A stretch of 19,898 bases of DNA from Candidatus Sumerlaeota bacterium (lineage in GTDB: Bacteria > Sumerlaeota > Sumerlaeia > JAPLSS01): contig JAPLSS010000504.1 of assembly GCA_026398515.1 (NCBI GenBank), positions 1-19,898 on the forward strand, written 5' to 3'. The position numbers were made by a program, and so were the translations under genes. Of the stretch, positions 2,103 to 19,898 are shown piece by piece (positions within the stretch are counted from its first letter, which is position 1; each line of letters starts with the position of its first letter). The notes beneath the pieces are model-generated. The model had not been told where the DNA came from, searched no databases, and worked only from the letters and a program-made list of their open reading frames with translations.

Positions 2103-2870
2103 ATGTCTGAGAAGAAGATGAACCTCACCCTGCGCGTGTGGCGCCAAGCTGGGCCGAGCGCCCGCGGGCGTTTTGAAACCTACCCGGCGAAGAACGTTTC
2201 GCCCGACATGTCGTTCCTGGAGATGCTCGACGCGGTCAACAACGACCTGCTCCTCCAGGGGATCGAGCCGATCGCCTTCGACAACGATTGCCGCGAGGGG
2301 ATCTGCGGGACGTGCGGCATCGTCATCAACGGCAAGGCGCACGGACGCGATCGCGGCGGCACGGTCTGCCAGCTGCACATGCGCGGCTTCCGCGACGGCG
2401 AGATGCTGACCGTCGAGCCGTGGCGCGCCAAGGCCTTCCCCATCGTCAAGGACCTGGTGGTGGACCGCTCGGCGTTCGACCGCGTCATTCTGGCCGGCGG
2501 CTACATCTCGACCCACACCGGCGCGGCTCCCGAGGCCAACGCCATTCTGATCCCCAAGGCTAAGGCCGAATTGGCGATGGACGCCGCGGCCTGCATCGGC
2601 TGCGGGGCGTGCGTGGCCTCCTGCCCCAACGCCTCGGCCTCGCTGTTCGTGAGCGCGAAGATCTCCCACCTGGCGCTCCTGCCGCAGGGCCATCCGGAAC
2701 GCGGGAAGCGGGCGCTGGCGATGGTGGCGGCGATGGACCGCGAAGGGTTCGGCCATTGCACGAACATCAGCGAGTGCGAGGCCGTCTGCCCCAAGGAGAT
2801 CTCGGTGTCCAACATCGCGCGGATGAACCGGGAGTATCTGTGGGCGTTGGCGAGTTATTCGGCGGATTGA
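2103..2870 (+). CDS. sdhB: succinate dehydrogenase/fumarate reductase iron-sulfur subunit
   Basis: Strong RBS GAAGGAGA lies 6 nt upstream of ATG 2103. Three cysteine clusters are present. [10 protein letters not shown] is the 2Fe-2S cluster, [12 protein letters not shown] the 4Fe-4S cluster, and [13 protein letters not shown] the 3Fe-4S cluster. Size of 255 aa is typical. Confidence 0.9.
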
Positions 2871-3177
2871 CTTGGATTTCTCACCAGGCACGGTTCAGTT
2901 GCGGTTCCTGGGGGCGCGGGCGTCCTCACTCGCCATGAACCGCGTCGGATTTGGATTGATGGCGGTTGAAGCGATGCGGCGGCGACTCGCGTCGGCGGAC
3001 AGAAGGTTATGCTCAGCCCCGAGTAGTTCTTTCGGACGCTCATCATAAACTCAATCAACCCGCGATGGGCCTAGCCCGCCGCGCCGGTCCGCCAGGGCTC
3101 GCCGGCGTCGCCTTCCTTGTTGAACGACCACGGATGTCCAACGTCCGTCTGTCTCATGCGCGTATCCTTTCCCATTC

Positions 3178-4590
3178 TCATTCCAGCGCGAACCAGCTCA
3201 CCGAATACGGATGCAGCGTTCCTTCGCCCTTGTCGATCGACCGAATGTCGCCCCCGGCGCTGGACAACTTGTCGGACCAATAGGCCTTCTTTAGCGCCGG
3301 TTTCAAAACGGCGCCGTTCATCGTCACACTTCCGATTTGCGCGGCGCTCTTGTCGAGATTCAGGGTAAACAGGCATTTCTGTTTGTTGTCTTCGAAGTAA
3401 TACGCCTTCACCTCCGGGGAACCGCTCACGAGAGCCGGAGCATACTTCGTATTCTTGATATTCGACAGCAGTTGAAAGGCGTAATAGGCGGGGTTGACCC
3501 GATAACCGCTCCGCGGGTCGCGATTGTCATTGAGGCTCAGCGGATCATGGCTGTAGGAGCTTCCGAATTTCATATATTCCAGCGACTGATAGAAGCCCGG
3601 GTGGCGGAAATTATAGTCCGTGACATAGAGCAAGTACCAGCAGGTGTGGATGAACTGCAACATTGTGCCGCCATACGCCGACTTGGCTCCTCCCGGGCTT
3701 CCCAAGTCCACCATTCCCCACTGATCGATGTTCCAGTGGCTCGAATACCGCGCCAGCGCGGCATTATCCTTCTCAAGGCGCGCCATGAAAGCCTTCAATT
3801 CGCCCAGTCCCTCGTCGAACTGTTCGTCAACGCTCGCTCTCGGCTGGACGACGTTGCGACACCATTGATACTGCGTCATCCCATCGATGTCGTCGAGTTT
3901 CGCCACCGTAGCATTCCACTGCGCGGAGTAGGCCGTCGCCTTCGCCGAATCCACCGGCGCGGCCCAGGCGAAGATTTTCACCTCGGGATGCTTCGAGCGG
4001 AGCATGGCGATGTATCTCTTCGCGCGTTCCGCATACTCTTCCGCCGTCATAATGCGGCCCCCTCCCAGCTGCAATTCCACTCCGAGGATCACGGAGGCCA
4101 CCCGCACGCCGGCGCCCTTGATTTCCTTCAAGGCGCGATCGATCTCGTCCACCGTGCCGTGCCACACGTTCGCGTTTACGATGGCGTCGGCGTTCGTGTC
4201 CTTGCACAGGGCGATGAACTTAGTCAGGAAATTCTCCGTGGCCTGCATGCTCGCGGCATGGCGCTGGGAGGCCGCCTGCGCGTATTCCTCCTTGTTGAAG
4301 CAGTATCCCACTCCCTTCGGATCGTAATGCCACCAATAGCTGAGGCTGCCCCCGGGGTATTGGAAATGCGTCACCCCCATGTCCTTCGCCAGCCGGGTGA
4401 ACTCCGGGTCGTGCGTATTCCAGTTCTCCAGATAGTGCTCGGTCATCATGCCAAAGATGGAATTGTTCACCTCGGACATCTGTGTCGTCGATACCGAGAT
4501 GTCGACGCGCCCGTCGGCCGCCGTAAGTGAGGATCCCGTGGAAACGCACAGAGCGCACAACAGCAAAATCGGACGTATCGCCCATTTCAT
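3178..4590 (-). CDS. secreted clan GH-A (TIM-barrel) glycoside hydrolase, family uncertain (GH39/GH51/GH79-like)
   Basis: Sec signal peptide MKWAIRPILLLCALCVSTGSSLTAADG, with RBS GGAAAGGAGG 8 nt upstream of ATG 4590. The ORF-track start at 4638 is further upstream. The FQYPGGSLSYWWHY motif resembles the R(F/Y)PGG motif of clan-A hydrolases. Family assignment is not possible without a search. Confidence 0.65.
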   Translation of the reverse strand: MKWAIRPILLLCALCVSTGSSLTAADGRVDISVSTTQMSEVNNSIFGMMTEHYLENWNTHDPEFTRLAKDMGVTHFQYPGGSLSYWWHYDPKGVGYCFNKEEYAQAASQRHAASMQATENFLTKFIALCKDTNADAIVNANVWHGTVDEIDRALKEIKGAGVRVASVILGVELQLGGGRIMTAEEYAERAKRYIAMLRSKHPEVKIFAWAAPVDSAKATAYSAQWNATVAKLDDIDGMTQYQWCRNVVQPRASVDEQFDEGLGELKAFMARLEKDNAALARYSSHWNIDQWGMVDLGSPGGAKSAYGGTMLQFIHTCWYLLYVTDYNFRHPGFYQSLEYMKFGSSYSHDPLSLNDNRDPRSGYRVNPAYYAFQLLSNIKNTKYAPALVSGSPEVKAYYFEDNKQKCLFTLNLDKSAAQIGSVTMNGAVLKPALKKAYWSDKLSSAGGDIRSIDKGEGTLHPYSVSWFALE

Positions 4591-4715
4591 GGAACAGGCC
4601 TCCTTTCCGGTCTGGCGCCTTGCGGATGCTTGGCCCAATGCTCTCTCCCGCCTCGCTGGTTGCTCTGAAGGGTTGTGAACAGCGGCTTCCGCGACTCGTG
4701 GTCCGCTCCCGTCCG

Positions 4716-7247: not shown

Positions 7248-7466
7248 GGCGATGGCCTCATTGAGGAGTTGGGATTCCACCGATTTAGACTACATCCGTC
7301 CGCATGATCCTCACATGATGAAATGGGCCGGCGATCAGGGGTTTTCGCGCATCCCGGATGCGCCCCGAAACCACGCGATCCAAGCGCCGGGCCGTCCCAC
7401 GCCTCCCGTTTGGAACGAAGCCTCATGCCTGACTGTGGCGTCATCCGGTCGTTGCGTTGCTTTTGA

Positions 7467-8738
7467 CTACGCCTCGGCTTCGAGCGCGACCACGGCGATC
7501 TCGTTTTTGCCCGACCGGCCAAAGGGACGAGGCAGTGGCTGGGCGATGCCGTTGGCGTCCACCGTGCGGCAACGCAATTCGTATGGGCCCGGCGCCGCGG
7601 CCGTCGCCAGCGCGGCCCAGTGAACGAGGGTGTTGGGGATGGGCCAGGTGAACGGCTTCCCGGTCTCCGGGTCCATCTGCATCACCGGCGGCAGTTCGCC
7701 ATTGGGCAGATCGCCGCCCCATTTCTCCGGCGGCGGCAGGATGGCCGCGTCCTGCCAGTCGCCCTTGGCCAGATACGGATCGTTTTCCGCCATGGGCGCG
7801 CCGGCGGGCTTGATCCAGTATTGCGCCTTGCTCAAGCCCGAAGGCCCCACCTGCGCCAGACCCGTGATGGCGACGGGCTGTCCGGCCCGGACCTTCTTCG
7901 GCGTCTGGATGAAGCGCGCACAGGTTTTGATGGGGCTTTCGACGTCGTTGTTGCGTTCGGCGTAGCTGTCGTTGGACTGGGACGTGTTCGTCGCCAGGAT
8001 GCGGCGCAGCCACTTGATGGACCGGTTTCCGTAAAAACCCGGCGCGACGAGACGCACCGGTCCCCCGCCGGCCTGCGAGAGGAATTGGCCGTTCATCTTG
8101 TAACAGAGAATGACCGGCGCCTCCCCCGGCGCCTCCTCCAGGACCCGGCTGATAGGCAGCGAACTCTGGAAACAGTATTTGGGGTCGTCGCTATAGTCGC
8201 CGTAATAGAAGATGCGGCGGATGTTCCGCTTCGGCTCCGTCATCCAGAACACCTCGCGCAGCGGCACGCCTTCCCACAGGCCCATGCCGTACGGTGTGGG
8301 CGCGTTGGTGCAGGAGAGCACATGGAGAAATCGCACGGCGCGCGTCTCCGCCAGTTTCATGAGGGCCGGAAAATCCAGCGCGTTGCCCCGTTCGTTCGAG
8401 AGCGGATTGCCCATTTCGGAATCGCTGTCGGGGTCGGGGACGATTTCCAACCGCCAGGTTTCGGGGGTCAGGCCGAGAGACGGCAGTTGATCCGCCGGCA
8501 GTGTGTCAATGCGCGGGTTTCCGCGTCCGCCCTGCCTCCGGAACTTGCTCAAGGGCGTCAGGTATTCGAGTTCGCTGACGGCCTCGACCAGAAGCGGGTC
8601 CGAGACCACTTGTGTCTGCGCTTGCTTCGCCCAAACCGCCGGGGCGGGCAGCACGGCCGCGGCGCCCGCGCCCAATTGGAGAAAAAACCGGCGCGTCAGG
8701 GAGGCGTGCTCTGAGGCGAAATGCTCCGGTCTGTCCAT
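7467..8738 (-). CDS. TAT-exported sulfite-oxidase-family molybdopterin oxidoreductase
   Basis: Twin-arginine signal SLTRRFFLQLGAGAAAVLPAPAVWA. The Moco-domain motif FLHVLSCTNAPTPYGMGLWEGVPLREV carries the conserved Cys in a C-x-N context followed by W.GVPL, as in the SO/YedY family. Its ~420 aa suit a Moco domain plus dimerisation domain. Confidence 0.6.
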   Translation of the reverse strand: MDRPEHFASEHASLTRRFFLQLGAGAAAVLPAPAVWAKQAQTQVVSDPLLVEAVSELEYLTPLSKFRRQGGRGNPRIDTLPADQLPSLGLTPETWRLEIVPDPDSDSEMGNPLSNERGNALDFPALMKLAETRAVRFLHVLSCTNAPTPYGMGLWEGVPLREVFWMTEPKRNIRRIFYYGDYSDDPKYCFQSSLPISRVLEEAPGEAPVILCYKMNGQFLSQAGGGPVRLVAPGFYGNRSIKWLRRILATNTSQSNDSYAERNNDVESPIKTCARFIQTPKKVRAGQPVAITGLAQVGPSGLSKAQYWIKPAGAPMAENDPYLAKGDWQDAAILPPPEKWGGDLPNGELPPVMQMDPETGKPFTWPIPNTLVHWAALATAAAPGPYELRCRTVDANGIAQPLPRPFGRSGKNEIAVVALEAEA

Positions 8739-8987
8739 AGCCGACTTCTCCCACTGCTTTGTCTTTGCCGGCGAAACGTTGGCATCATGCCGCGATCCAA
8801 GTCAATCCCGACCGCTCGTAGATAGGAGAAACGGGGGTCATTCATGGCGTGAGCGGTTCGATGGAGGCCTCAGTCAACGGGAGCGAAGTTTAACCGAACC
8901 CTCCCGAAACTGAAACCATTGGAGGCGAACGCCGTTTTCAGGGCCTCGGAGGGCTGGCCATCGGCCTCTCGGATGACGGCCTTGCAT

Positions 8988-9176
8988 TCATAGTTCGTTT
9001 CGATTGCTCTGCACGGGTTTGTCGCCCTCGGCGCGCGACGCCCGCCTTCGCCGCTGCACCGCCTCGCGCAACAGGAATTCGATCTGCCCATTCACGCTGC
9101 GCAATTCGTCCTTTGCCCAACGATTGAGATCGTCCCACAGTTCGGAGTCGATGCGCAGCAGGAAAGGCTTCTTCAT
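8988..9176 (-). CDS. Arc-family ribbon-helix-helix DNA-binding protein
   Basis: MKKPFLLRIDSELWDDLNRWAKDELRSVNGQIEFLLREAV matches the conserved Arc-like RHH family, where a beta-strand is followed by two helices. The short 62-aa protein has an Arg-rich tail. Confidence 0.7.
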   Translation of the reverse strand: MKKPFLLRIDSELWDDLNRWAKDELRSVNGQIEFLLREAVQRRRRASRAEGDKPVQSNRNEL

Positions 9177-9191
9177 TCCACCAACTCTCAA

Positions 9192-9290
9192 AGGAATGAA
9201 AGCCACGGATGAACGCAGATGCGCACAGAAAGATGCTCTGCCTGGGGCCATCTGTGTTCATCTGTGTTCATCCGTGGTTCCTTTCATTCC
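9192..9290. promoter_or_regulatory. operator-like repeat cluster upstream of the Arc-like gene
   Basis: Inverted repeat ggaatgaaag..cacggatgaac (9192-9213) pairs with gttcatccgtgg..ctttcattcc (9266-9290). A 10-bp tandem tctgtgttca x2 (9251-9270) is followed by a degenerate third copy. The half-site GTTCATC/GATGAAC occurs three times, at 9207, 9256 and 9266. Confidence 0.45.
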
Positions 9291-9304
9291 AGTGGCGGGC
9301 GCTT

Positions 9305-10204
9305 TTAGTGATACAACGTCCCGGCGTTGACCACCGGCTGGGCGTTGGTCTCGCCGCAGAGAACCACCAGCAGATTGCTGACCATCGAGGCCTTGCGCTC
9401 GTCGTCCAGTTCCACGACGTTTTCCTGGCGCAGAAGATCGAGCGCCATTCGCACCATGCCGACCGCGCCCTCGACGATCTTCTGCCGCGCGGCGATGATG
9501 GCCGAGGCCTGCTGGCGCTTGAGCATCGCCTCGGCGATTTCGGGCGCGTAGGCCAGATGGCTCAGGCGCGCCTCCAGCACGCGCACGCCCGCTTTTTGCA
9601 GGCGCTGTTCCAGCTCCTGTTCGAGCGCCTTGGACACCTCGTCGATGCTCCCGCGCAGCGTGACGGTTCCTTCCCCTTCCCAGGAATCATACGGGTAGGC
9701 GCTGGCAAGGTGGCGCAGTGCGGACTCGCTCTGGATCATGACGTAGTCCATGTAGTCGTTCACCTCGAAGCAGGCGGCAAAGGTGTTCTCCACCTTCCAC
9801 ACAATGACCGCGGCGATCTCGATGGGATTGCCCGCCTTGTCGTTCACCTTGATCTTTTCGCCGTTCAGGTTATGCAGGCGTAGCGAGATCTTGCGTTTGG
9901 AGTAGAAGGGATTCGTCCAGTGGAATCCCTCGCTCTTGACCGATCCAATGTAGCGCCCGAACAGCAGAAGGACGCAGGCCTCATTCGGCTGGAGCATGAA
10001 GAAGCCGGGCGCGATCAGTATGGCCGCCAGCAGGAGGAACGGCGCGGCGATCAGCATCGCGACCGCGGACGCCGGCGCGACCCGGCTGTTGGCGATCGTG
10101 ACAATGCCGGCGATCGGGCAGGCGATCACCAGGATGAACAGCGCGATGTCCAGACACAGCCACCCCCAACCCGAACGGACTTGCACGTCAATTTCGCGAC
10201 TCAT
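9305..10204 (-). CDS. SPFH/band-7 (stomatin-prohibitin-like) membrane protein
   Basis: N-terminal hydrophobic helices ([23 protein letters not shown] and [19 protein letters not shown]) precede an SPFH core ([23 protein letters not shown]...) and a coiled-coil/Ala-rich C-terminus. RBS GGGGGTGG lies 7 nt upstream of ATG 10204; GTG 10213 is an alternative. Confidence 0.75.
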
Positions 10205-10231
10205 GGTTGCCACCCCCTGGCATAAGATTAT

Positions 10232-10253
10232 ATCGCCATGATATCATGGCGAT
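10232..10253. promoter_or_regulatory. perfect 22-bp palindrome (ATCGCCATGATATCATGGCGAT) in the SPFH promoter region
   Basis: The sequence is exactly self-complementary, lies 28 nt upstream of the SPFH start codon, and is AT-rich relative to its surroundings. A 2-nt centre is too tight for an RNA hairpin loop, which favours a dimeric-protein operator. Confidence 0.6.
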
Positions 10254-10331
10254 TTCACACGTCAAGGGGAAAACGGATGGGCAGCAGCGGCAGTGGCCTC
10301 TCCGCGTGGCGCAGGCGTCCCGCCTGCTATT

Positions 10332-11537
10332 TCAGCGCGTGGGGTAGAGTCGATGCAGGCGGGACGCCTGCGCCACGTACCCGCCGAAGACTTCGTGCAT
10401 CCGGTCGCAGTAGTAGCGCACGTTGTCCCACTCGGCGTCGCCGGCGATGCGGTGGTCGGGGCAGGGGAGGAAGCCGCCGAGATCGACGAGACGACGCAGT
10501 CGCTCGATCTCGGCGTCGATGGTTGCATGGTCGCGGGCGAAGATCTTCTTGTTCATGCCGCCCACGCCGCGCAGTTCCCGGCCATACTGCTTGCGCCATG
10601 GCTCGATGCTGGCGTCCCAAACGCCGACTTCGATGGGGAACATCGTGTTGACCCCGTTGCCGATCCACGTGGGGATCAGCGCGTCGATCTTGCCGTCGCA
10701 GTCCAGCGACACGATGTCGATGCCGTATTGATGCACGAGATCAGTGATGCGCCGGTAATGCGGGCCGATTTTGGCCTCGAACACGCGCGGCGAGATGAGC
10801 GGGCCGCTGCGATAGCAGATGTCCTCCCAGAAGTGGGCGAAATCGAACTTCGCGCCCGACTCCAGGGCGGTTTTGACGCACCGATGGCAAACCTCGGCGG
10901 CGGTCTCGATCATCTCATCCAGCAGCGGCTCGTCGTCGGCGAGCAGATAGACCGAGCCTTCCAGGGTCAGCCAGTTGCGGATGCGCCCATACAAACTGCC
11001 ACAGAACAGCCCGAGCGGATAATCGCGTTCGCCCTCGCGCAGGAATTCGGCGCCGCCTTCGTCGAACGGGACCATCTGGTCGCCGACGCGAACCTTGGCT
11101 TTCCGCACGCGGTCCGCTGAGAAGCGGAGCCGGGGCTTGTAATGCTCCTCCCACGCCGCACGGTCCTTGAGCAGGTGGTCGACGTCGGGTTGAATCGACC
11201 CCGCGCCGGGGACCTCCAGGATAGTCACGCCTTCGCCGTTCATGATCGTGCGCGACCCGTCGGGCCGCTCCTCGATCACCCGTCGTTGAAAGGCCGGCGC
11301 CAGGCTCGTTTGCGGCGAGAAGAGGGTGTGCCAACAGAGATCAAAGCCGATCTTGCGGCCGAGCGCCTCGCCGGCCGGCGTTCCGTCGGCGTATGCGCGC
11401 GCCTCGTCGCGGGTGATGTGCCCTTCCCTGGCCCATTTGTTCAACGTCTCCGCCAGAAAGCCGAAATGGACCACCGGCGCGTGGTCCGCCGATTCGTAGT
11501 GGAGGATTCGCATGGCGGCTTCGCGATGGGTCATCAT
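10332..11537 (-). CDS. uroporphyrinogen decarboxylase (URO-D) family protein (MtaA/CmuA-like methyltransferase or decarboxylase)
   Basis: Length (~400 aa) and motifs such as GVNTMFPIEVGVWDASIEPWRKQYGREL..VGGMNKK are consistent with URO-D-fold enzymes. RBS GGAGGG lies 9 nt before ATG 11537. The ORF-track start at 11573 is unsupported by an RBS. Confidence 0.55.
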   Translation of the reverse strand: MMTHREAAMRILHYESADHAPVVHFGFLAETLNKWAREGHITRDEARAYADGTPAGEALGRKIGFDLCWHTLFSPQTSLAPAFQRRVIEERPDGSRTIMNGEGVTILEVPGAGSIQPDVDHLLKDRAAWEEHYKPRLRFSADRVRKAKVRVGDQMVPFDEGGAEFLREGERDYPLGLFCGSLYGRIRNWLTLEGSVYLLADDEPLLDEMIETAAEVCHRCVKTALESGAKFDFAHFWEDICYRSGPLISPRVFEAKIGPHYRRITDLVHQYGIDIVSLDCDGKIDALIPTWIGNGVNTMFPIEVGVWDASIEPWRKQYGRELRGVGGMNKKIFARDHATIDAEIERLRRLVDLGGFLPCPDHRIAGDAEWDNVRYYCDRMHEVFGGYVAQASRLHRLYPTR

Positions 11538-11598
11538 GGGGCGATCCCTCCAAACCGGGGGTGTTAGTGGCACGGACTCGCGGGATTCCCGCTTCCCT

Positions 11599-11685
11599 CA
11601 ATCGTCCTGCCCCGAATCGTCCTGCCTTGGTCGGTTTCGCTCGATAGCACGACGTCAGGCAGGACGATTAAGGGCAGGACGATTG
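11599..11685. repeat. 28-bp near-perfect inverted repeat, built from tandem 12-mers, flanking a 31-nt core
   Basis: AATCGTCCTGCC x2 (11600-11611 and 11615-11626) is mirrored by GGCAGGACGATT x2 (11658-11669 and 11673-11684). The arms match at 26/28 positions. It is intergenic, between the sulfatase stop and the URO-D start. Confidence 0.8.
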
Positions 11686-11742
11686 GGGGCCGCCATGGAA
11701 TTCCGTCGCCCGAACGCTTGATTGCGGCCTCGTTTCTCTATG

Positions 11743-13695
11743 CTATTGCTCTCTCTTCTCCCCGCGGATGAAGTCGATGCGAATGTCCGCGGGCTTGTCG
11801 GTTTCCACGCTCAAGCGCAGCGCCACGATCTTCTTCTTCCAGCGCGGATTCTCCCCGACGGCGAACACGCAATCGTGGAATTGCCCGTCCGCTTGCAGGG
11901 GAACCGGAACGCTCTTCGGGGGGCTCCACCGCGTCAAGCCTTCGGCCAGCCACCACAGCGTGACCGAGCGCCCCGCGCTTGCCGCCATCCGCACGCGGAC
12001 CGTGGGATAGGCCTTGCCGTTGATCGCGCAGGCTTCGAGGGTCATCGACGGCTCGCGCCCCGTGGTTTTCGTCGCCAGGCAACCGTCCGCAATCGCCGGC
12101 GGCGCCAGGTCCTTGGCGGCCGTCCAGCCGTCGAGCGATTTGTCGAACGAAAAGTCGAGTCGGGTGACGCCGCCCGGCGCGGAGGCCGCCGGTTGCTCGG
12201 GCTCTCTCTGCGGACGCTTCGGCTCGGGCGCCGTCCCCTGCTCCGCCTCCTCGAGGGGGTGTTTGGGCGCCGTGCGGCCCTTGAATCGCGCCATGGCGGC
12301 CTGCAAGTCGATGTTGTCGCCGGTCTCCTTGCGCCACTGGTCGGTCAACGCGCGCAGCTTCGCCTTGATCTCGGCGCAGGCGGGGTCGTCGACGCGGTTG
12401 TTCAATTCGTAGGGATCGTCTTTCACATTATAGAGAAGCCAGTCGCCGTCCTCGATTCCGACGGACCAGGCATAGAGCCACTCCTTAGTCCGCACGGCGC
12501 GCCAGGACGGGATGAATCCCCCGCCGCCTCCGGTCGAGTTGATCGAGAGGAAGACGGATTCCGGCTCCTTATCGCTCTTGCCCGACAACACCTGGGATAG
12601 GTCCACGCCCTGCACGCCGTTGGGGATCGGCGCGCCGCACAGGCCGAGGAGCGTGGGCATCACGTCGACCGACGCGAACAGCGCGTCCTTCTTCTGGCCC
12701 GCGGGGATCTGGTCCGGCCAGCGCAGGAGGAACGGGATGTGCGCCGCCTCCTCCCACGGCCGCTGTTTTAGGCGCTGCCCCTGGGAATACAGCATGTCGC
12801 CATGGTCCGCCGAGAAGCAGACGATCGTCCGCCCGGCGATGCCCAGTTCGTCCAGCGCCTGCGTCATCCGGCCGACCTCGTGGTCCAGGCTGGCGATCAG
12901 GCCATAGTACTGCGCGATGTCGCGGCGCGCCGCGGCCTCCATGGATTTCGGCACGTTCGGTCGCAGCGGGACCTTCGCCGGATCGTAGAGGTCGAATTCC
13001 TCCGGCGGCTTGTAGGGGTTGTGCGGCGGGCCAAACGAGAGCATGAGGAGGAACGGCCGCTCGCGGTTCGCCTTCATGAAGTCGATGGCGAGGTTCGCCT
13101 GGTTCGTCGGCTCGTATCCGTCGACGGGGATCGGCTCCGGCGTGTCGCGGTAATAGTGGGTCTTGTAGTAGTTGTGGCTGCATTCGAGGGCGGCCCAGAA
13201 ATCGAACCCCTGGCGCGCCGGCCCCGGAGGGATGAAACCGCCGTGGCGAATGTCGCCGACCGGCGCGCGCCGGGCGCCTTCGAGGTGCCACTTGCCGATG
13301 TAGCCGGTGGAGTAGCCCTGGTCCCTTAACACCTCGGCGATAGTGATCTCCGACTCCGGCAGTTTGATGTCGTTGGTGATGACGCCGGTCGCGTGGCCGT
13401 AGCGCCCGGTGAGGAGCTGCGCGCGGTACGGCGAGCACAGCGGCGTGCACGAGAAGGCGTTGGTCAGCATCATGCCTTCGGCGGCGAGGCGGTCCAGGTT
13501 CGGCGTCTGCACGTATGGATCGCCCGCGCACCCCATCGCGCAAAAGCGCATCTGGTCGGCGAACACGTAGAGGATATTGGGGCGCTCTTTGGATTCTTCC
13601 GCAAGAAGCGGTGATTGCGGCAGAAATGAGGCCGCGGCCACGGCGCCGGACATGCGGTGGATGAACGCACGTCGGTTCAACGATTCATTGGGCAC
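11743..13695 (-). CDS. TAT-exported Cys-type sulfatase with C-terminal extra domain
   Basis: CTPLCSPYRAQLLTGRY is the sulfatase C-x-P-x-R FGly-modification signature. GKWHLG, SADHGD and the NILYVFADQ N-terminal metal-site motifs are also present. The RRAFIHRMSGAVAAASFL TAT signal implies the GTG 13695 start, which has AAGGAG 8 nt upstream. A Pro/Glu-rich linker and a ~160-aa C-terminal domain of unknown function follow. Confidence 0.85.
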   Translation of the reverse strand: MPNESLNRRAFIHRMSGAVAAASFLPQSPLLAEESKERPNILYVFADQMRFCAMGCAGDPYVQTPNLDRLAAEGMMLTNAFSCTPLCSPYRAQLLTGRYGHATGVITNDIKLPESEITIAEVLRDQGYSTGYIGKWHLEGARRAPVGDIRHGGFIPPGPARQGFDFWAALECSHNYYKTHYYRDTPEPIPVDGYEPTNQANLAIDFMKANRERPFLLMLSFGPPHNPYKPPEEFDLYDPAKVPLRPNVPKSMEAAARRDIAQYYGLIASLDHEVGRMTQALDELGIAGRTIVCFSADHGDMLYSQGQRLKQRPWEEAAHIPFLLRWPDQIPAGQKKDALFASVDVMPTLLGLCGAPIPNGVQGVDLSQVLSGKSDKEPESVFLSINSTGGGGGFIPSWRAVRTKEWLYAWSVGIEDGDWLLYNVKDDPYELNNRVDDPACAEIKAKLRALTDQWRKETGDNIDLQAAMARFKGRTAPKHPLEEAEQGTAPEPKRPQREPEQPAASAPGGVTRLDFSFDKSLDGWTAAKDLAPPAIADGCLATKTTGREPSMTLEACAINGKAYPTVRVRMAASAGRSVTLWWLAEGLTRWSPPKSVPVPLQADGQFHDCVFAVGENPRWKKKIVALRLSVETDKPADIRIDFIRGEKREQ

Positions 13696-13725
13696 AACAA
13701 CATCTCCTTCTCTTTGAGAACGGGG

Positions 13726-13813
13726 AGTATGGAGTCCCGCCTTTAGGCGGAATGTGCGATTGCCGGACTGTGCTTACCTAGCATCATTCCGCCTGAAGGC
13801 GGGACTCCATACT
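13726..13813. repeat. 29-bp inverted repeat (28/29) with internal mini-hairpins, flanking a 30-nt core
   Basis: 13726-13754 (agtatggagtcccgcctttaggcggaatg) matches the reverse complement of 13785-13813 except for one base. Each arm contains ccgcc-NNNN-ggcgg. A further nested inverted repeat, agtgcgac...gtcgcact (13838-13891), lies immediately downstream. Confidence 0.8.
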
Positions 13814-13899
13814 GCTGATCCTTGTTTAGGCCCGTAGTGCGACGTTCAGGTCGTACGAATACTCGACGACTTGTACGACCCAAAAGTCGCACTCCGAAC

Positions 13900-15165
13900 T
13901 CAACCCGCCACGATTTCGGCCACATCCGCGATGAACAACTGCCGCGCGCCGTGAGGAGCGGCTTGGAAACACACCTTCGTGAAATCGCGGCTCCACGCCG
14001 GATGGCCGTCCACTCGGAACACACTATCCGGATATTTCGACGGGTCAATGGTGGGGATGCCGCAGACGATTCTTTCTTCTTCCGCCGCGAGATCGACCAG
14101 CCGGATTTCCATGCGAGCCCCGTCTTCGCCTTTCTGCCGCTGGTCCGTCACGATGAACCGTCCGCGCGGCTCGATGCTCGGATGGCCCCGGCCTTCGATC
14201 TTCCCGCTCAGGCAGCGCGTCTCCGAGCCGTCAAACCGAAACTGCCAGTAGCGCGACTTCGCGACGCCGTCGGCCTTCATGTGGCGAAGAACGTGAACCC
14301 CGTCGGCATGCCAGTTTGGATGGCCGCCGCTGGCGCCCCAGACGGGCAGGCGCTCGCTCCCCGCCCCGCCCTGCGCGAAGCGGATGTCGCTCCCATCGGG
14401 ATTGAACGTAAAAACCATCGGGTTCACCGTGGCGGGCATCTGCGGATGAAGATAGCGGAGCACTTGCATCACCCGCGTTCCCTGGCGGTTGAACTTCGAA
14501 TGCCAGAAGTAATAGGCGCCGCCGGGGCGAGGCGGGGCAGAGGGAACGCGCGCCGCCACGTCCGCCAAACTGACGAGCAGCGTCTTCTCGTTCGTGCGCA
14601 GGTCGGTTCGCCAGATCCCCTCGTCCGTCGCCGCGCCGGGCGGAAGGCGGCGCGGATTCCCCGGCTCCTTCGGCGGCACGCCGTAGCCGAGTTGCGTCAC
14701 ATCGCGCTGTTCGTGCGGGAAGCCGATCACGCACGACTCGTCCGGCGCGATGCTGTAGAGCGGGCCGGCGAACGCGCGGGTTTCCCGCGTCTCCAGGTCG
14801 ATCCGCACGCACACCGCCGCATCGCCGATCACGTCGTTGGCGTAGAGGCGGCGATCCGTCGCGCCCCAATGCACGTTGGCGCCGGTCTGGAAGCCCCAGC
14901 AGCGCGTCGAGTACACGGACTGAATGGTTTGCTCCTCCAGGTCGATGACGCAGACCTCGGCCGCGTCGCCCAGCACGGGCATGCGGTCTTGGAACGGCAG
15001 GCGCGTGGCCGCCAGATAGCGTTGCGACGGGCTGAACGGCGTGACGTCAAAATAGGTCTGCACGTAGAAGCCGCCCTCGGGCGTAACCTGCATGACCGGG
15101 GCCAGTGTTTCACCTGGGCGGTAGGGCGTCAGGCGAAACGGCCTTTTCTTCCATGCATCGCGCAT
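13900..15165 (-). CDS. cytoplasmic beta-propeller protein, oligogalacturonide-lyase-like (tentative)
   Basis: The 421-aa ORF has an AAAGGA RBS 7 nt before ATG 15165 and no signal peptide. Its overall pattern (N-terminal LTPY..., repeated aromatic/Gly-rich blades, C-terminal HPAWSRDFTKV) recalls the OGL/Pectate_lyase22 beta-propeller family, a weak similarity judged by eye. Confidence 0.5.
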   Translation of the reverse strand: MRDAWKKRPFRLTPYRPGETLAPVMQVTPEGGFYVQTYFDVTPFSPSQRYLAATRLPFQDRMPVLGDAAEVCVIDLEEQTIQSVYSTRCWGFQTGANVHWGATDRRLYANDVIGDAAVCVRIDLETRETRAFAGPLYSIAPDESCVIGFPHEQRDVTQLGYGVPPKEPGNPRRLPPGAATDEGIWRTDLRTNEKTLLVSLADVAARVPSAPPRPGGAYYFWHSKFNRQGTRVMQVLRYLHPQMPATVNPMVFTFNPDGSDIRFAQGGAGSERLPVWGASGGHPNWHADGVHVLRHMKADGVAKSRYWQFRFDGSETRCLSGKIEGRGHPSIEPRGRFIVTDQRQKGEDGARMEIRLVDLAAEEERIVCGIPTIDPSKYPDSVFRVDGHPAWSRDFTKVCFQAAPHGARQLFIADVAEIVAG

Positions 15166-15264
15166 CGTTGTTCCTTTCTCCCGCGGGGTTGTCTTTCGGG
15201 CCTCTTAGAAACCGACCGGAACACTGCGGCTGAATGGCAGAACAGGCTGCGCCCAGATCGCAAT

Positions 15265-15627
15265 TCAGACGCTGCCGTGAGGGGGCGGTTGACGGAGCAG
15301 CGGCTCCAACTGCGCAATCAACACCGGGAGATGAATCGTGGCCAGCGCCCAGATGCGTTCGTGCTTGATCTCGCCGTATTCATGCGCGAGCACGTTGCGC
15401 TGGGCAATGACCTTCCGCCAGGGAATCTCGGAGTGGACATTCTGGAAGCCGCGAGAGACGTTGTGCGCCGCTTCGCCGATGATCTCGATATGTCTTTCCA
15501 CTGCGCCTCTTAGCATGCGATTGCGCAGATACTCGTCAAATGTCCGGCCGGACACGAACTCACACACCGCCCGGGCGGCGTCGAGCATGTCCCAGATATA
15601 CGAGGCGTCGCCGGTTTCAGCCCGCAT
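15265..15627 (-). CDS. hepT: HepT-like (DUF86) nucleotidyltransferase-substrate-binding toxin of a HepT/MntA toxin-antitoxin pair
   Basis: MRAETGDASYIWDMLDAARAVCEFV...RNRMLRGAVERHIEIIGEAAHNVS...RNVLAHEYGEIKHERIWA carries a DUF86/HepT-like Rx4HxY-type motif (RNVLAHEY). It overlaps the upstream mntA by 11 nt. The longer ORF-track start at 15849 would read through mntA in another frame. Confidence 0.75.
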   Translation of the reverse strand: MRAETGDASYIWDMLDAARAVCEFVSGRTFDEYLRNRMLRGAVERHIEIIGEAAHNVSRGFQNVHSEIPWRKVIAQRNVLAHEYGEIKHERIWALATIHLPVLIAQLEPLLRQPPPHGSV

Positions 15628-15922
15628 AAATGACCTCGTGCGTGCGAAGGATCTCGTGACGGCGATAGGGATTGCGCAGGGCGTCCTTCTCCACCAAGTC
15701 CACCGAGCGGCCGATGATTTGCTCCAATTCCTCGCGGATGTCGACAAGGTCCCACAGGCTCCAGGGCGCGTCTGGGGCAAAAGTGACCAAGACGTCGACG
15801 TCGCTGTCCGGACGGAAGTCGTCCCGCAATACCGAGCCAAAAAGCGCAAATTCCGTGATCTTCCACTTGCGGCAGAACTCGGGAATGCGGTCCGTGGGGA
15901 TAGCCAAAGAATATCGGCTCAT
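15617..15922 (-). CDS. mntA: MntA-like minimal nucleotidyltransferase antitoxin
   Basis: GSVLRDDFRPDSDVDVLV is the GS-x(9-10)-DxD nucleotidyltransferase motif. RBS GGAGGG lies 6 nt before ATG 15922. It sits immediately upstream of hepT and overlaps it. Confidence 0.8.
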   Translation of the reverse strand: MSRYSLAIPTDRIPEFCRKWKITEFALFGSVLRDDFRPDSDVDVLVTFAPDAPWSLWDLVDIREELEQIIGRSVDLVEKDALRNPYRRHEILRTHEVIYAG

Positions 15923-16140
15923 TGCGGCCCTCCGAGGTCAGTGATGCGAGTATGGGGGAACAGGCGGCGAACTCGCAATAGAAAGACGCTCGTCGTCTGC
16001 GGAATCGGCCTGCCTTGACCGGGCTTGCGCCGCTGTTGGAATGGATCCTCGAAAACTCCTATACGGCGCTTGGGCCTCTGCATACTATTCCGCCCGGCGA
16101 TTGGCAAGAAATTGACATTTCAACGCAGGAGAATGGCTGT

Positions 16141-17094
16141 ATGCAATCCGGGATGTCTTCCTTCTTAGTGCTCGGCGGGCTTTGGCTGACCCTATCCGCC
16201 GCCGCTGTCCGCGCCGACGACTGGCCCCAGTGGCGCGGGCCGGGCCGCGACGGCGTGTGGAAGGAAACCGGCGTCGTCGAGACGTTCGACAAGCCGCAAC
16301 TCGACCTCGTCTGGCGGCAGCCCATCGGCGGCGGCTATTGCGGCCCGACGGTGGCGCAGGGGCGCCTCTACGTCGCCGACCGCCTCACCACCCCCACCGA
16401 ACAGGAGCGCATCCTGTGCTTCGACGCGATGACGGGGGAGAGGCTGTGGGCTTACGCCTACGAACGTGAGTACCGCAACCTGCAGTACGCGTCGGGCCCG
16501 CGCGCCTCGATCTCCATCGACGACGGGCGCGCCTACGCTCTGGGTTCGTTCGCCGATTTCCATTGCCTCGACGCGGCTAGCGGCAAGGTCCTTTGGGGCA
16601 AGGACATGCTCAAGGAATACCAGGTGCGCGTGCCGCAGTGGGGCATCGCCGCCGCGCCGCTCGTCGAGGGCGACCTGGTCGTCCTGCATGTCGGCGGCTC
16701 GAACGGCGCGTGCCTGGTGGCGTTCGACAAGAAGACCGGCGAGGAACGTTGGCGCGCGCTCAACGACCGCGCCTCGTATTCCGCGCCGATCATCATCGAC
16801 CAGGCGGGCAAGCGGGTTCTCGTCTGCCTGACCGGCGAGCGCGTGGTGGGGCTCGATCTGCAATCCGGGCAACTCGATTGGGAGTGTCCGTTCCCGCCCA
16901 GCCCCAGGCGGGGGCCGATCACCGTCGCCTCGCCCGTTTTTCACAGCGGCTATCTCTTCTTCACCAACTTCTATGAAGGCTCGTTGTTGTTGAAAGTTGT
17001 GCCGGACAAACTGGCGGTTGAGGAGGCTGGAGCACGATGCACTTCATCCAGAACGGCGACAAGGTTTGGCTGTTCACCGAGCGCGGCGAGCTGA
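16141..17094 (+). CDS. secreted PQQ-like beta-propeller repeat protein (BamB-like); reading frame breaks near 17000-17040
   Basis: Signal peptide MQSGMSSFLVLGGLWLTLSAAAVRA is followed by DDWPQWRGPGRDGV and repeated GxLYV/LxALDAxTGxxLW blades. The frame-1 ORF ends at 17094 with an implausible tail. The final blade continues in another frame (17037-17411). Confidence 0.7.
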   Translation: MQSGMSSFLVLGGLWLTLSAAAVRADDWPQWRGPGRDGVWKETGVVETFDKPQLDLVWRQPIGGGYCGPTVAQGRLYVADRLTTPTEQERILCFDAMTGERLWAYAYEREYRNLQYASGPRASISIDDGRAYALGSFADFHCLDAASGKVLWGKDMLKEYQVRVPQWGIAAAPLVEGDLVVLHVGGSNGACLVAFDKKTGEERWRALNDRASYSAPIIIDQAGKRVLVCLTGERVVGLDLQSGQLDWECPFPPSPRRGPITVASPVFHSGYLFFTNFYEGSLLLKVVPDKLAVEEAGARCTSSRTATRFGCSPSAAS

Positions 17095-17411
17095 TGATCA
17101 CCCGCCTCTCGCCGCAAGGGGTGGAGGTGATCAGCCGCGCCCAGTTGATCAAACCCATGGTGAGCCAGTTGCCCCGGCGCGGCGGGGTCTGCTGGGCCCA
17201 CCCCGCCTTCGCCAATCGCCACGTTTACGCGCGCAACGACGAGGAGTTGGTCTGCGCGGATCTGACGGCGAAGTGTGCGAGTGGAACAGAATGTGTCAAC
17301 GCCGCCGCATGGCGTGGAGGGAAAGATGACGCATCCCGTATTTCTCAGACGCGTTGTTCTGAAGAACTACAAGAGCATTGCGAAATGCTCGGTCGCTTTG
17401 AATCCCCTTAA
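17037..17411 (+). pseudogene. displaced C-terminal blade of the PQQ beta-propeller gene (frameshift or sequencing error), over-running into the next gene
   Basis: The frame-0 translation DKVWLFTERGELMITRLSPQG...VCWAHPAFANRHVYARNDEELVCADL is the canonical last PQQ blade. That frame opens only after TGA 17019-17021, and no stop follows until 17411, 86 nt inside the downstream ATPase gene. Confidence 0.5.
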
Positions 17412-18543
17412 CTTCCTCGTGGGCCCCAATGGCGCGGGGAAAAGCAATTTCCTCGAAGCGCTGCGACTGGTTGCGGACGCGTTGAACACGTCTCTCGACC
17501 ACGCGTTGCGTGAACGAGGCGGGATTCAAGAGGTGCGTCGGCGTTCGTCTGGCCATCCAACGCATTTCGGCATTCGGCTGGAGTTCACGTTGCGGGACGA
17601 CGTCCAGGGACATTACGCCTTTCGCGTCGGCGCGAAGGAGAAAGGCGGATTCGAGGTCCAGGAGGAAGAGTGCCGCATAGAACCGGATTGGGGGAGCGCC
17701 TCGTTCTTCAAGGTCGAGTCCGGCGAGGTGAAGGATTCCAGCGCTCAGATATTGCCACCTGCCGCCGATGACCGCCTGTATCTGGTTGCTGCCGCGGGCT
17801 TACCCGAGTTTCGGCCTCTGTACGACGCCCTTTCGCACATGGGGTTCTACAACCTAAGCCCCGATGCGATTCGCGAGTTGCAGCCTCCCGATGCGGGTGA
17901 AACACTGAGTCGCGATGGCGGCAACTTGGCCAGTGTGCTCTCGCTCATGGAACGAGAGAACAAGGAGGCGCGCAATAGAGTCGTGGAGTTCTTGTCCGTC
18001 GTCGTTCCCGGCATTGTGGGGATCGAAACGAAGCATATCGCCAAGAAGGAAACCATCGAATTTCGGCAGAAGGTCGGCGGCAGCGCCAGCCCGTGGCGCT
18101 TCATGGCCGAGAACATGTCCGACGGGACATTGCGCGCGCTCGGCGTTCTGGCGGCATTGTTCCAGTCGGCGAACGGCGGAGCAAAGCGGGTGCCTCTTGT
18201 CGGAATCGAGGAACCCGAAGTGGCGGTCCACCCGGGAGCCGCGGGAGTTCTGCGCGACGCCCTGCGCGTAGCGTCCGCCAACACTCAAGTCTTGGTCACC
18301 AGCCACAGCCCCGATTTGCTGGATGACAAATCAATCGGCGATGAGTGCATCCTCGGAGTATCCAGCATCAACGGAGAGACCAAGATCGGACGACTGAATG
18401 ACGCGGAGCGATCGCTCATCCGTGATCGGCTATTCACGGCCGGCGAACTTCTGCGTTCAAGCGAACTTGGGCCCAATATCGAGCAGATCAACCAGATTCC
18501 CGCTCGACAACTCGAGCTTTTCGGCGAGGCCAGCCGTGAATGA
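17326..18543 (+). CDS. ABC/SMC-RecF-clade ATPase (AAA_15/AAA_21-like, OLD/AriA/GajA-type ATPase module)
   Basis: RBS GGAGGG lies 5 nt before ATG 17326. The N-terminus FLRRVVLKNYKSIAKCSVALNPLNFLVGPNGAGKSNFLEAL contains Walker A GPNGAGKS. Also present are an ABC-signature-like MSDGTLRAL, Walker B/D-loop VPLVGIEEPEVAVHP and H-loop VLVTSHSP. GC is visibly lower than in flanking genes. Confidence 0.8.
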   Translation: MTHPVFLRRVVLKNYKSIAKCSVALNPLNFLVGPNGAGKSNFLEALRLVADALNTSLDHALRERGGIQEVRRRSSGHPTHFGIRLEFTLRDDVQGHYAFRVGAKEKGGFEVQEEECRIEPDWGSASFFKVESGEVKDSSAQILPPAADDRLYLVAAAGLPEFRPLYDALSHMGFYNLSPDAIRELQPPDAGETLSRDGGNLASVLSLMERENKEARNRVVEFLSVVVPGIVGIETKHIAKKETIEFRQKVGGSASPWRFMAENMSDGTLRALGVLAALFQSANGGAKRVPLVGIEEPEVAVHPGAAGVLRDALRVASANTQVLVTSHSPDLLDDKSIGDECILGVSSINGETKIGRLNDAERSLIRDRLFTAGELLRSSELGPNIEQINQIPARQLELFGEASRE

Positions 18544-19144
18544 GATTCGACTGGCGGCCATTGTGGAAGGCCGTGCGGACGCCATAGCCCTTCCTCTTTT
18601 GACTCGGCGGATCGCCGGCGTGGTGGATCCTGCCCTGAGCATTCGGGTCCATCCCATTCTTCGAGTGCCGGCCTCGCGTCTCCTTAAAGAGGGGGAACTG
18701 GAACGCAGAATCGAGCAGGCGGCCCGCAATCTGGAAGGAAGAGGCGGCATCCTGATCTTGCTGGATTGCGACTGGAAAGACGGTTGTCCCGCCATCGATG
18801 GCCCGCGCTTGTTGGAACGAGCCCGCGCCGAGCGGCCGGACATACCCATCACTGTCGTGTTGGCCAAGAAGGAATTCGAGGCGTGGTTCATCGCCGCCGC
18901 TGCTTCACTGAGAGGGAAGAGGGAGTTGGCGGAGGATTTGACTCCTCCTTCGGCGCCTGAGGAGATCCGGGGCGCGAAGGAGTGGCTGTCGGCTCGCATG
19001 CCAAGAACACGACCCTGTGCCGAGACCATCGACCAGCCTGCCTTGACAGCGCAGTTCGATATGGACGCCGCGCGCCGAGGCGCGGACTCCTTTGACAAGT
19101 GCTATCGCGAGATCGTCCAGCTCTTGACGACGCTGCAGGGCTGA
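18536..19144 (+). CDS. DUF4276-like small protein with TOPRIM-like acidic motifs (putative nuclease partner of the ATPase)
   Basis: GTG 18536 overlaps the ATPase stop as GTGAATGA, indicating coupling. The protein is MNEIRLAAIVEGRADAIALPLL...ILILLDCDWKD...KKEFEAWFIAA. It has an N-terminal conserved Glu (IVEG), a DxD (LLDCD) and an E.EAW motif, a pattern I associate with DUF4276/TOPRIM-like domains. Confidence 0.6.
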   Translation: MNEIRLAAIVEGRADAIALPLLTRRIAGVVDPALSIRVHPILRVPASRLLKEGELERRIEQAARNLEGRGGILILLDCDWKDGCPAIDGPRLLERARAERPDIPITVVLAKKEFEAWFIAAAASLRGKRELAEDLTPPSAPEEIRGAKEWLSARMPRTRPCAETIDQPALTAQFDMDAARRGADSFDKCYREIVQLLTTLQG

Positions 19145-19177
19145 TAATCAACGCAATCGCGATAGGGATGAGCGAAG

Positions 19178-19206
19178 GGAGCGGCTTTGCCGCTCCGGTT
19201 CTTTCA
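19178..19206. terminator. putative bidirectional intrinsic terminator between convergent genes
   Basis: GGAGCGGC-tttg-GCCGCTCC is an 8-bp GC-rich stem with a 4-nt loop, followed by ggTTCTTTcaatc. It lies between the DUF4276-like stop (19144) and the thrS stop (19238). Confidence 0.5.
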
Positions 19207-19237
19207 ATCTGCTCGACGAACCTACGTCAATCAGACT

Positions 19238-19898
19238 TCATGCCTTCTTCACCGGCTCGTTGATCCGCTCATCGATTTCCTGGCGCGCCTGGGCGATCAT
19301 CGCGTCGATTGCGATTGCGCCTTGATCTCCCAGTTGCCGCCGCCGCAGCGCGACCTGGCCGCTGGCCGCTTCGTTCTTGCCGACGACGAGCATCAGCGGG
19401 ATCTTGCGCATCTCGGCCTCGCGGATCTTCTTGCCGATCTTCTCGTCCGACGGGTCGATTTCGGCGCGGATGCCGGCGTCGTTCAGTTGTTGCCACACCT
19501 GCTCCGCGTATTCGCGCTGGTCGGCGGAAATCGGCAGGACGATGGCCTGCACGGGCGCCAGCCACAGCGGGAAGTCGCCCGCCCAGTGCTCCGTCAGGAT
19601 TCCCAGGAAGCGCTCGATGGAGCCGAAGATCGCCCGGTGGATCATCACCGGACGCCGCCGCGAGCAGTCGGGCGCGATGTAAGTCAGGTCGAACCGTTCG
19701 GGCATCGAGAAGTCGACTTGGATCGTCCCGCACTGCCACGTGCGCTTCAGGCAGTCCTGGATGTGGAAATCGATCTTGGGGCCGTAGAACGCGCCGTCGC
19801 CGGGGTTGATCTTGAACTTCACACCCATCTCCACGAGCGACTCTTGCAGCGCCGACGTGGCCTTCTCCCAGATCTCGTCGGACCCCATGCTCTTCTCG
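19238..19898 (-). CDS. thrS: threonine--tRNA ligase, C-terminal part (gene continues beyond the window end)
   Basis: The sequence covers the class-II core, RTWQCGTIQVDFSMPERFDLTYIAPD...RPVMIHRAIFGSIERFLGILTEHWAGDFPLWLAP, and the anticodon-binding domain, AIVLPISADQREYAEQV...IRAEIDPSDEKIGKKIREAEMRKIPLMLVVGKNE. This is a highly conserved ThrRS C-terminus. Confidence 0.9.
   Translation of the reverse strand, partial: EKSMGSDEIWEKATSALQESLVEMGVKFKINPGDGAFYGPKIDFHIQDCLKRTWQCGTIQVDFSMPERFDLTYIAPDCSRRRPVMIHRAIFGSIERFLGILTEHWAGDFPLWLAPVQAIVLPISADQREYAEQVWQQLNDAGIRAEIDPSDEKIGKKIREAEMRKIPLMLVVGKNEAASGQVALRRRQLGDQGAIAIDAMIAQARQEIDERINEPVKKA

Follow-up and report, generated by a model that had tools for sequence, protein, structure and literature searches.

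How did a toxin-antitoxin (TA) pair, a broken PQQ/BamB-like beta-propeller gene and an ATPase gene pair come to be lined up beside the housekeeping gene thrS? They occupy positions 15265-19237 of contig JAPLSS010000504.1, and the window that we analysed is the whole of this contig, 19,898 bp of a short-read metagenome-assembled genome (MAG) of Candidatus Sumerlaeota bacterium. A sequence-only reading had taken the interval for one integrated islet whose insertion broke the 3' end of the PQQ gene. Our analyses argue for a different answer: the interval is probably a mosaic, in which a native PQQ/BamB-like pseudogene and a native thrS are interleaved with two independently acquired modules, MntA/HepT and HEC-01. 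MntA/HepT pairs are type VII TA systems, in which a HEPN RNase toxin is held inactive by a nucleotidyltransferase antitoxin. HEC-01 (Hma-embedded candidate 01) is a candidate system of PADLOC v2 made up of an ABC ATPase along with a TOPRIM protein whose OLD-like metal site is conserved (Payne et al., bioRxiv 10.1101/2024.01.29.577857).

Composition and content of the two modules

The two modules and the right flank of the interval comprise the following predicted genes:

15265..15627, minus strand: hepT, putative type VII TA HEPN RNase toxin of 120 amino acids (aa), intact, with the Rx4HxY motif RNVLAHEY
15617..15922, minus strand: mntA, putative nucleotidyltransferase antitoxin of 101 aa, with the GSx10DxD motif FGSVLRDDFRPDSDVD
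17326..18543, plus strand: HEC-01A, ABC-type ATPase of 405 aa, PADLOC HEC-01A (PDLC04178), 1.6e-164
18536..19144, plus strand: HEC-01B, DUF4276-like TOPRIM protein of 202 aa with a GTG start, PADLOC HEC-01B (PDLC04196), 4.9e-62
19238..19898, minus strand: thrS, truncated to its 3' part where the contig stops, with Pfam domains tRNA-synt_2b and HGTP_anticodon (partial in the source annotation)

Codon usage sets these genes apart one by one. Expressed as the z score of a Karlin-type measure of codon bias, computed leave-one-out relative to the core genes of the window, it reached 7.1 in HEC-01A, 6.2 in HEC-01B and 4.6 in mntA, with 1.4 in the short hepT. The corresponding scores were -0.1 and -0.3 for the N- and C-terminal parts of the PQQ gene and 0.7 for thrS. 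The GC content of third codon positions (GC3) follows the same lines. It is 0.82-0.93 in the genes at 4716-15165, in the PQQ gene and in thrS (0.889), which is thus identified as a native right flank, convergent to HEC-01B; it is 0.76 in hepT, 0.765 in mntA, 0.704 in HEC-01A and 0.703 in HEC-01B. Because both measures differ gene by gene, the order of the interval is native-foreign-native-foreign-native and not one block. The lower GC that had been noticed in the ATPase/TOPRIM pair was also confirmed (0.595 and 0.622, against 0.65-0.67), as a modest fall in overall GC, to ~0.60 against 0.65-0.70, that is equalled in other parts of the window. The compositional signal of the modules is carried by GC3 and codon usage, and these contrasts resolve such a mosaic gene by gene where overall GC and tetranucleotides fail.

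The right-hand pair is a predicted intact member of the PADLOC candidate system HEC-01. Both profiles are matched nearly from end to end, with HEC-01A residues 1-402 on positions 1-397 of 399 in PDLC04178 and HEC-01B residues 4-197 on positions 3-193 of 197 in PDLC04196. HEC-01A also matches the Pfam families AAA_21 and AAA_15 and carries a Walker A motif (GPNGAGKS), a signature-like motif (SDGTLRALG), a Walker B/E motif (LVGIEEPE) and an H-loop (TSHSP). Among 69 HEC-01A homologs, conservation of the elements GPNGAGKS, SDGTLRALG, IEEPE and TSHSP is complete or no lower than 90%, and the window has all of them. The GTG start of HEC-01B at 18536 overlaps the HEC-01A stop codon (18541-18543) by 8 nucleotides (nt) on the same strand, an arrangement in which translation of the two proteins would be coupled. 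With residues counted from 18539, HEC-01B keeps E10, D76-x-D78, E112 and E114; the first is found in 52 of 60 homologs, D76 and D78 in all 60, and the ExE positions are conserved as well. The Pfam match of HEC-01B to DUF4276 scored 27.5 bits, under the 30.2 cutoff. A profile search of the PDB returned no sequence relative of HEC-01B, and a single-sequence AlphaFold2 (AF2) model, with a predicted local distance difference test score (pLDDT) of 52, was too poor for a fold search; the order of the secondary structures and the positions of E10 and DxD weakly fit a TOPRIM-like alpha/beta fold. HEC-01A matches the solved structures of OLD, GajA and PtuA around Walker A only, the closest being OLD (6p74) and GajA. 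A scan for sigma-70-like promoters between 15 and 19.9 kb found none. The two genes, of which one is so far called 'AAA family ATPase' and the other has no name, can be annotated as a candidate defence pair of the HEC-01 kind.

One stretch of HEC-01B departs from its family. Where the homologs (n = 60) have a near-invariant VEGHGE(C/V)E, the protein of the window reads VEGRADAI (18569-18586). The substitutions H12R, G13A and E16I each occur in 0 of the 59 other homologs and E14D is a rarer variant. Further along, E122A (18902-18904) is again found in 0 of the 59 others, with Glu at this position in 49/60. The VEGRAD sequence and E122A could reflect relaxed selection or an altered effector.

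The left-hand module would be an intact MntA/HepT type VII pair acquired on its own. The 11-nt overlap that had been read between its genes is exact, with the mntA TGA at 15617-15619 and the hepT ATG at 15625-15627 on the minus strand. The toxin matches Pfam HepT-like at 7.4e-24 (84 bits, cutoff 23.5), and the antitoxin matches NTP_transf_2 at 5.5e-19 (69 bits) and PADLOC PDC-S09 at 9.3e-28. Because both proteins score under the NCBIfam equivalog cutoffs of 60 bits each (35.1 for HepT_toxin and 52.2 for MntA_antitoxin), the pair represents a divergent subfamily, for which membership holds at the domain level.

A second hepT-mntA pair lies beside the closest intact homolog of the PQQ gene, P0002 (439 aa; locus L084, ENA ERZ27247977 k141_282500). 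It occupies L084 2352-3033, downstream of and convergent to the PQQ gene, and its proteins are only 33-46% identical to those of the window. This identity, and the position on the other side of the PQQ gene, ruled out orthology of the two TA pairs. They look like independent acquisitions, and their likeness would reflect how common the module is rather than shared ancestry.

Two lesions in the PQQ/BamB-like gene

The gene between the two modules, and the short stretch that separates it from HEC-01A, can be divided as follows (the slash marks the deletion junction):

16141..17025, plus strand: PQQ/BamB-like beta-propeller pseudogene, N-terminal 295 codons, frame 1, Pfam PQQ_2 7.3e-29
17025..17028, plus strand: deletion junction GAG/GC-TGG, lacking 59 codons and 1 nt (178 nt), change from frame 1 to frame 3
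17028..17273, plus strand: PQQ pseudogene, C-terminal 82 codons, frame 3 (WSTMHF...CADLTAK), undegraded
17274..17325, plus strand: lost PQQ stop (TGT 17274-17276), 49-nt spacer and ribosome-binding site GGAGGG before HEC-01A

Two separate lesions make the PQQ gene a pseudogene: a 178-nt deletion at 17025/17026 and the loss of its stop codon at 17274-17276. Intact PQQ_2/BamB-like genes have a single frame of ~430-440 aa that ends in C-A-x-L-x-A, 1-5 further residues and a stop; the gene of the window has neither the single frame nor the stop. The sequence-only reading was right that the last part of the gene lies in another frame: homology runs in frame 1 to 17025 and then in frame 3 over 17028-17273. 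We defined the deletion against nine intact homologs (428-446 aa) and the DNA of the closest one, P0002 at L084. The N-terminal part (GC3 0.868) aligns with P0002 residues 18-297, and the deletion removed residues 298-356 and one base of the following codon, about one blade of the propeller. In the protein alignment, the reconstruction from the window is without columns 310-368, between LAVEE and WSTMHF, and this gap is unique to the window. The DNA alignment to L084 accordingly falls into two blocks, with window 16213-17039 matching L084 878-1705 and window 17026-17274 matching L084 1869-2117. The window reads ...GTT GAG GAG / GC TGG AGC ACG ATG where L084 has ...GTG GAG CCG GTC TGG ...(blade)... 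GAC CGC TGG AGC ACG ATC. A single 178-nt deletion therefore accounts for both the missing blade and the -1 change of frame. The tetranucleotide CTGG is present at both breakpoint ends in the L084 homolog, and the lesion is compatible with a deletion mediated by microhomology, joining corresponding positions of two neighbouring blades and imprecise by one base. A move of the missing blade to another place in the window was ruled out by tblastn, which found no match anywhere in it. As to the cause of the frame break, an indel in the repeat cgttgttgttg (16983-16993) had been suggested; the frame-1 homology passes through this repeat (GSLLLK) and on to 17025, which rules it out.

Beyond the deletion, the C-terminal part of the gene shows 83% aa identity to P0002 residues 358-439 and 78% DNA identity to L084, has a GC3 of 0.926 and keeps all family-invariant residues. 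It has no stop of its own, as had been noticed, and reads AAG TGT at 17271-17276 where L084 has AAG TAG. The frame is then open to 17411, 86 nt beyond the ATG of the ATPase gene at 17326. Because a stop-free overrun of 46 codons is expected by chance in ~27% of cases at the base composition of the window (computed), it is unremarkable once the stop was lost; the overrun into HEC-01A would be a passive result of that loss, and translation from the PQQ start no longer reaches this frame. The annotated PQQ open reading frame (ORF) of 317 aa follows a different course after the deletion and continues out of frame to a TGA at 17092-17094. The source record lists it as an ordinary protein, and it should carry a pseudogene flag or an assembly check. 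The junction also forms a Shine-Dalgarno-like GAGGAGG (window 17019-17039) 11 nt upstream of an in-frame ATG at 17037. A C-terminal fragment of 124 aa that overlaps the HEC-01A start could be translated from this ATG, although the arrangement is probably fortuitous.

Since the C-terminal piece is pristine, the deletion is either very recent or an artefact of assembly or strain variation. That the break and the missing blade arose in assembly or consensus calling, or represent a minority strain variant, and that the real gene is intact, we regard as unlikely. The contig does come from a short-read MAG, and the 82 codons without decay (83% identical to P0002, GC3 0.93) look as those of an intact gene would. 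However, the loss of 178 nt in non-repetitive coding DNA is not an error of the homopolymer type, and the microhomology at the breakpoints, only CTGG in the closest homolog, is too short for the collapse of a de Bruijn graph. In addition the stop is lost, which goes beyond a single artefact. If the gene were intact after all, the HEC-01 and TA modules alone would be noteworthy.

Probable acquisition of the modules

The distribution of HEC-01 complements its composition. A protein search recovered thousands of HEC-01A homologs at 65-75% aa identity, and the two-gene cassette recurs at 65-76% in Phycisphaerae, Verrucomicrobiales, Latescibacterota, Kiritimatiellae, Hydrogenedentes and others. For thrS and the PQQ gene of the window, in contrast, no relative exceeds 67% and 57% identity, respectively. 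In 72 of 83 loci a near-full-length HEC-01B comes right after HEC-01A, usually overlapping its stop or a few nt from it; among the remaining 11, seven are cut by a contig end and four have HEC-01B decayed or missing. The DNA homology of the 83 cassettes to the window is restricted to 17311-19138 and ends at the ORF boundaries. Beyond these ends we found no conserved DNA, and the upstream regions are unrelated to the window and form several unrelated groups. The 113 neighbouring ORFs fall into 96 Pfam families, among which only N6_N4_Mtase (8) and ResIII (5) recur, consistent with the context in which HEC-01 was defined, embedded in Hma or restriction-modification (RM) systems. Other neighbours are housekeeping genes, including those for tyrosyl-tRNA synthetase, phosphoenolpyruvate (PEP) carboxykinase, pyruvate kinase and ribonucleotide reductase. 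Given the diverse neighbours, the homologs in many phyla and the DNA homology limited to the cassette, HEC-01 fits a compact, horizontally spread two-gene unit without a dedicated mobility gene.

Several of these loci deserve a description of their own. Some with an intact HEC-01A and a decayed HEC-01B (L123 7228-7311, L126 6139-6222, L159 2215-2499 and L157) keep of the second gene a C-terminal remnant of 29 aa, a copy truncated at its N-terminus, or nothing, which points to erosion of the cassette in the wild. The cassette overlaps the end of the upstream gene in 6 of 57 dereplicated loci, five of which share the same end sequence: in L097, L120, L125, L157 and L161 there is an 8-nt overlap of the upstream gene with the HEC-01A ATG, and this gene has the conserved end …IAVKVIDPRGNEV…, which looks like the C-terminus of a DNA methylase. 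No plasmid relative exceeded 36% identity. The sole match in the viral collection, L168 4944-6194 (IMGVR_UViG_3300025715_000361), is a HEC-01A homolog with 76% identity over residues 1-386 and without HEC-01B; after it come an ORF of 116 aa and a gene of the radical SAM/SPASM type, and the Pfam scan gave its neighbours no phage hallmark domain.

On the left side of the cassette, PQQ homology ends at 17273-17274 and cassette homology begins at 17311-17326, so that the junction, if there is one, lies within 17274-17311 (~40-50 nt). The one scar-like feature of this stretch is the lost stop, ~50 nt upstream from where HEC-01A starts, and it would be the only one compatible with a junction left by insertion of the cassette. 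The coding sequence beside the lost stop shows no other decay, and for this reason replacement of the PQQ stop by incoming DNA seems slightly more probable than a point mutation that arose by chance. Independent of this is the frame break, an internal deletion ~250 nt upstream of the junction interval. It had been placed exactly where the ATPase module begins, with an insertion junction at ~17000-17330; the break in fact lies 300 nt upstream of the module, the positions 17000-17040 belong to the internal deletion of the PQQ gene with homology on both sides, and what survives of the proposed junction is the possibility of one at 17274-17311, with only the lost stop (17274) near the boundary.

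Composition and distribution thus support, short of proof, the acquisition of HEC-01 as a separate small module, and the TA pair was probably acquired separately too. The earlier inference of horizontal acquisition can be kept for the HEC-01 pair (codon usage, GC3 and homologs in many phyla) and, less strongly, for mntA (codon usage and GC3), and it is the single islet that has to be given up.

A number of observations weigh against such a mosaic. Neither the overall GC nor the tetranucleotide profile makes the region an outlier within the window, so that the compositional distinctness expected by the sequence-only reading holds for GC3 and codon usage only. The codon-usage reference consists of only nine segments of one 20-kb contig, and atypical codon usage can also stem from low expression rather than foreign origin. 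The pristine C-terminal piece of the PQQ gene admits the artefact considered above. No major ORF of the window carries an integrase or recombinase domain in Pfam, scans of the window for tRNA genes and Rfam families returned nothing, and no target-site duplication or terminal repeat above chance flanks the cassette. Nor does synteny help: the PQQ homolog of L084 lies between coaX and hepT-mntA without thrS, no synteny links the contexts of the homologs P0002, P0248 and P0244 to the window, and the regions downstream of thrS in the loci of its nearest relatives, L086 (a Sumerlaeaceae MAG) and L087, are unrelated to the window. Finally, a representative of HEC-01 gave no protection in E. coli (bioRxiv 10.1101/2024.01.29.577857).

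Two of these searches yielded observations of their own. The sequence-only reading had looked to flanking direct repeats, and the best that we found is the 7-nt TCAACGC at 17296-17302 and 19148-19154, so that one copy precedes the ATG of the cassette by 24 nt and the other follows its stop by 4 nt. Repeats of this length or longer were reached in 28% of shuffled flanks, and it is no evidence of a target-site duplication. A scan of genome contigs with thrS returned relatives of at most 63% identity, mostly from Bacillota. The apparent close relative P0242 (L085 448-1536) was rejected because a duplicated fragment had inflated its bit score. L085, an ENA contig of 1,555 bp, carries the catalytic-core/anticodon-binding segment of thrS twice in tandem, in copies 55-57% identical to the thrS of the window, and is probably a chimeric assembly.

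Could the modules have been in place for long? If HEC-01 and MntA/HepT were long-resident, their codon usage would reflect low expression or family constraint and the lesions of the PQQ gene would be unrelated decay. The window is indeed free of mobility genes, repeats and tRNA genes and its tetranucleotides are unremarkable, its part 1-4638 deviates in codon usage just as much, and no empty site is known. Still, the cassette is up to 76% identical to copies from other phyla, against at most 67% between its neighbour thrS and any known thrS, and the neighbourhoods of HEC-01 are highly variable elsewhere. The drop in GC3 by 0.15-0.2 is moreover confined exactly to the two HEC-01 ORFs, a classic signature of acquisition. 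Long residence without insertion is therefore quite improbable.

The single islet over 15265-19237, comprising the TA pair, the PQQ gene and the ATPase module, with an insertion that broke the PQQ 3' end at ~17000-17330, we hold to be very unlikely. It has in its favour that three units lie between native-looking genes, two of them with atypical codon usage, that the damage to the PQQ gene lies close to the ATPase module, and that the closest PQQ homolog also adjoins hepT-mntA. Yet the unit in the middle is native: the PQQ gene has the codon usage and GC3 of the core genes, so that composition is not distinct throughout, as in an integrated element, but only in the HEC-01 pair and mntA. Its break has homology on both sides, as an internal deletion and not a junction would; the TA pair of L084 is non-orthologous and on the other side of the gene; HEC-01 cassettes elsewhere travel without PQQ or MntA/HepT genes; and the window lacks the integrase, tRNA gene or repeat of such an islet. 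There is hardly any reason to suppose, finally, that HEC-01 moves as a bare two-gene unit and targets the 3' ends of genes, along some unrecognised route that needs no integrase, or that VEGRAD marks an altered TOPRIM effector, even though cassettes elsewhere start 8 nt inside the ends of methylase genes or lie beside aminoacyl-tRNA synthetase genes; on that supposition the PQQ stop would have been replaced here and the locus would be a fresh insertion scar.

The mosaic of native genes and acquired modules thus remains the preferred reading, and the rest of the window can be described around it:

Upstream of the 13900-15165 ORF: sulfatase and other enzymes (Pfam scan)
13900-15165, upstream of hepT: ORF of 421 aa without a Pfam domain (prop421)
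19178..19196, plus strand: GC-rich hairpin resembling a terminator (8 bp, of which 7 are GC) with a T-rich tail after it, in the gap that separates HEC-01B from thrS

The hairpin comes from a consensus scan only, which gave 6 sites against 4.0 expected. At the other end of the contig, positions 1-4638 are atypical as well, with codon-usage z scores of 8.0 for a DinB-like gene (146-655), 7.0 for an ORF at 743-1141, 3.7 for an ORF with a SEC-C motif (1414-1830) and 4.8 for an ORF at 3178-4638, and GC falls to 0.545-0.59 at 3200-3800. The ORF at 2004-2891 on the minus strand has a first-position GC content (GC1) of 0.855, which suggests that the wrong frame or strand was chosen. This part of the window may be a second foreign stretch or a poorly called one. 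Beyond annotation, the locus at 15265-19237 matters little; it adds one case from Sumerlaeota of tiny defence and TA cassettes among housekeeping genes without mobility genes.

Comparison with known systems

The left-hand module resembles the MntA/HepT type VII systems in having both Pfam domains above cutoff, the antitoxin gene first, overlapping genes and the Rx4HxY and GSx10DxD motifs. It differs from them in that its proteins score below the NCBIfam equivalog cutoffs, and it is best called a putative pair.

The right-hand module agrees with HEC-01 in its full-length profile matches, in the succession of a 405-aa ATPase and an overlapping TOPRIM/DUF4276-like protein of ~200 aa, and in the motifs that it keeps. 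In contrast to the setting in which the system was named, the cassette of the window stands alone between a pseudogene and thrS, outside any Hma or restriction-modification system, and its HEC-01B has VEGRAD for VEGHGE and E122A. The defence activity of the family is itself unsettled; another HEC-01 representative was protective in a cold-seep study against at least one of the phages T4, T5 and T7.

Among the better-known systems, PARIS (the ABC ATPase AriA with the DUF4435 TOPRIM protein AriB), OLD and Gabija likewise pair an ABC ATPase with a TOPRIM nuclease. The matches of HEC-01A to their ATPases in PADLOC (AriA 1.7e-27, Old 1.5e-22 and GajA 1.1e-14) are weak, and those to Old and GajA cover parts of the ATPase only. 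Unlike in PARIS, the TOPRIM partner is of the DUF4276 type and not DUF4435, and neither PADLOC nor Pfam gave it an AriB/DUF4435 match. Unlike in OLD and GajA, ATPase and TOPRIM are encoded in two ORFs and the partner is not a TOPRIM_OLD; no gene for a helicase such as GajB was found between 15 and 19.9 kb. The Toprim superfamily includes DUF4276, a relative of Mad4 in the methylation-associated defence system (MADS), whose Mad3 is an ATPase of the AAA_21 type (PMC12065111). HEC-01A matches mad3 weakly (PADLOC, 2.6e-28). The pair differs from Mad3/Mad4 in that the NCBIfam MAD3 model scores 100 bits against a cutoff of 420 and HEC-01B has no mad4 match, and neither a methyltransferase nor any further MADS gene is found among the ORFs of the window. 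HEC-01 is likely to work much as OLD, Gabija and PARIS do: HEC-01A would act as sensor and scaffold and would license HEC-01B, as a metal-dependent TOPRIM nuclease, to cleave nucleic acid when a phage infects. The locus is, in sum, an ordinary defence-islet mosaic of known kinds and not a new system.

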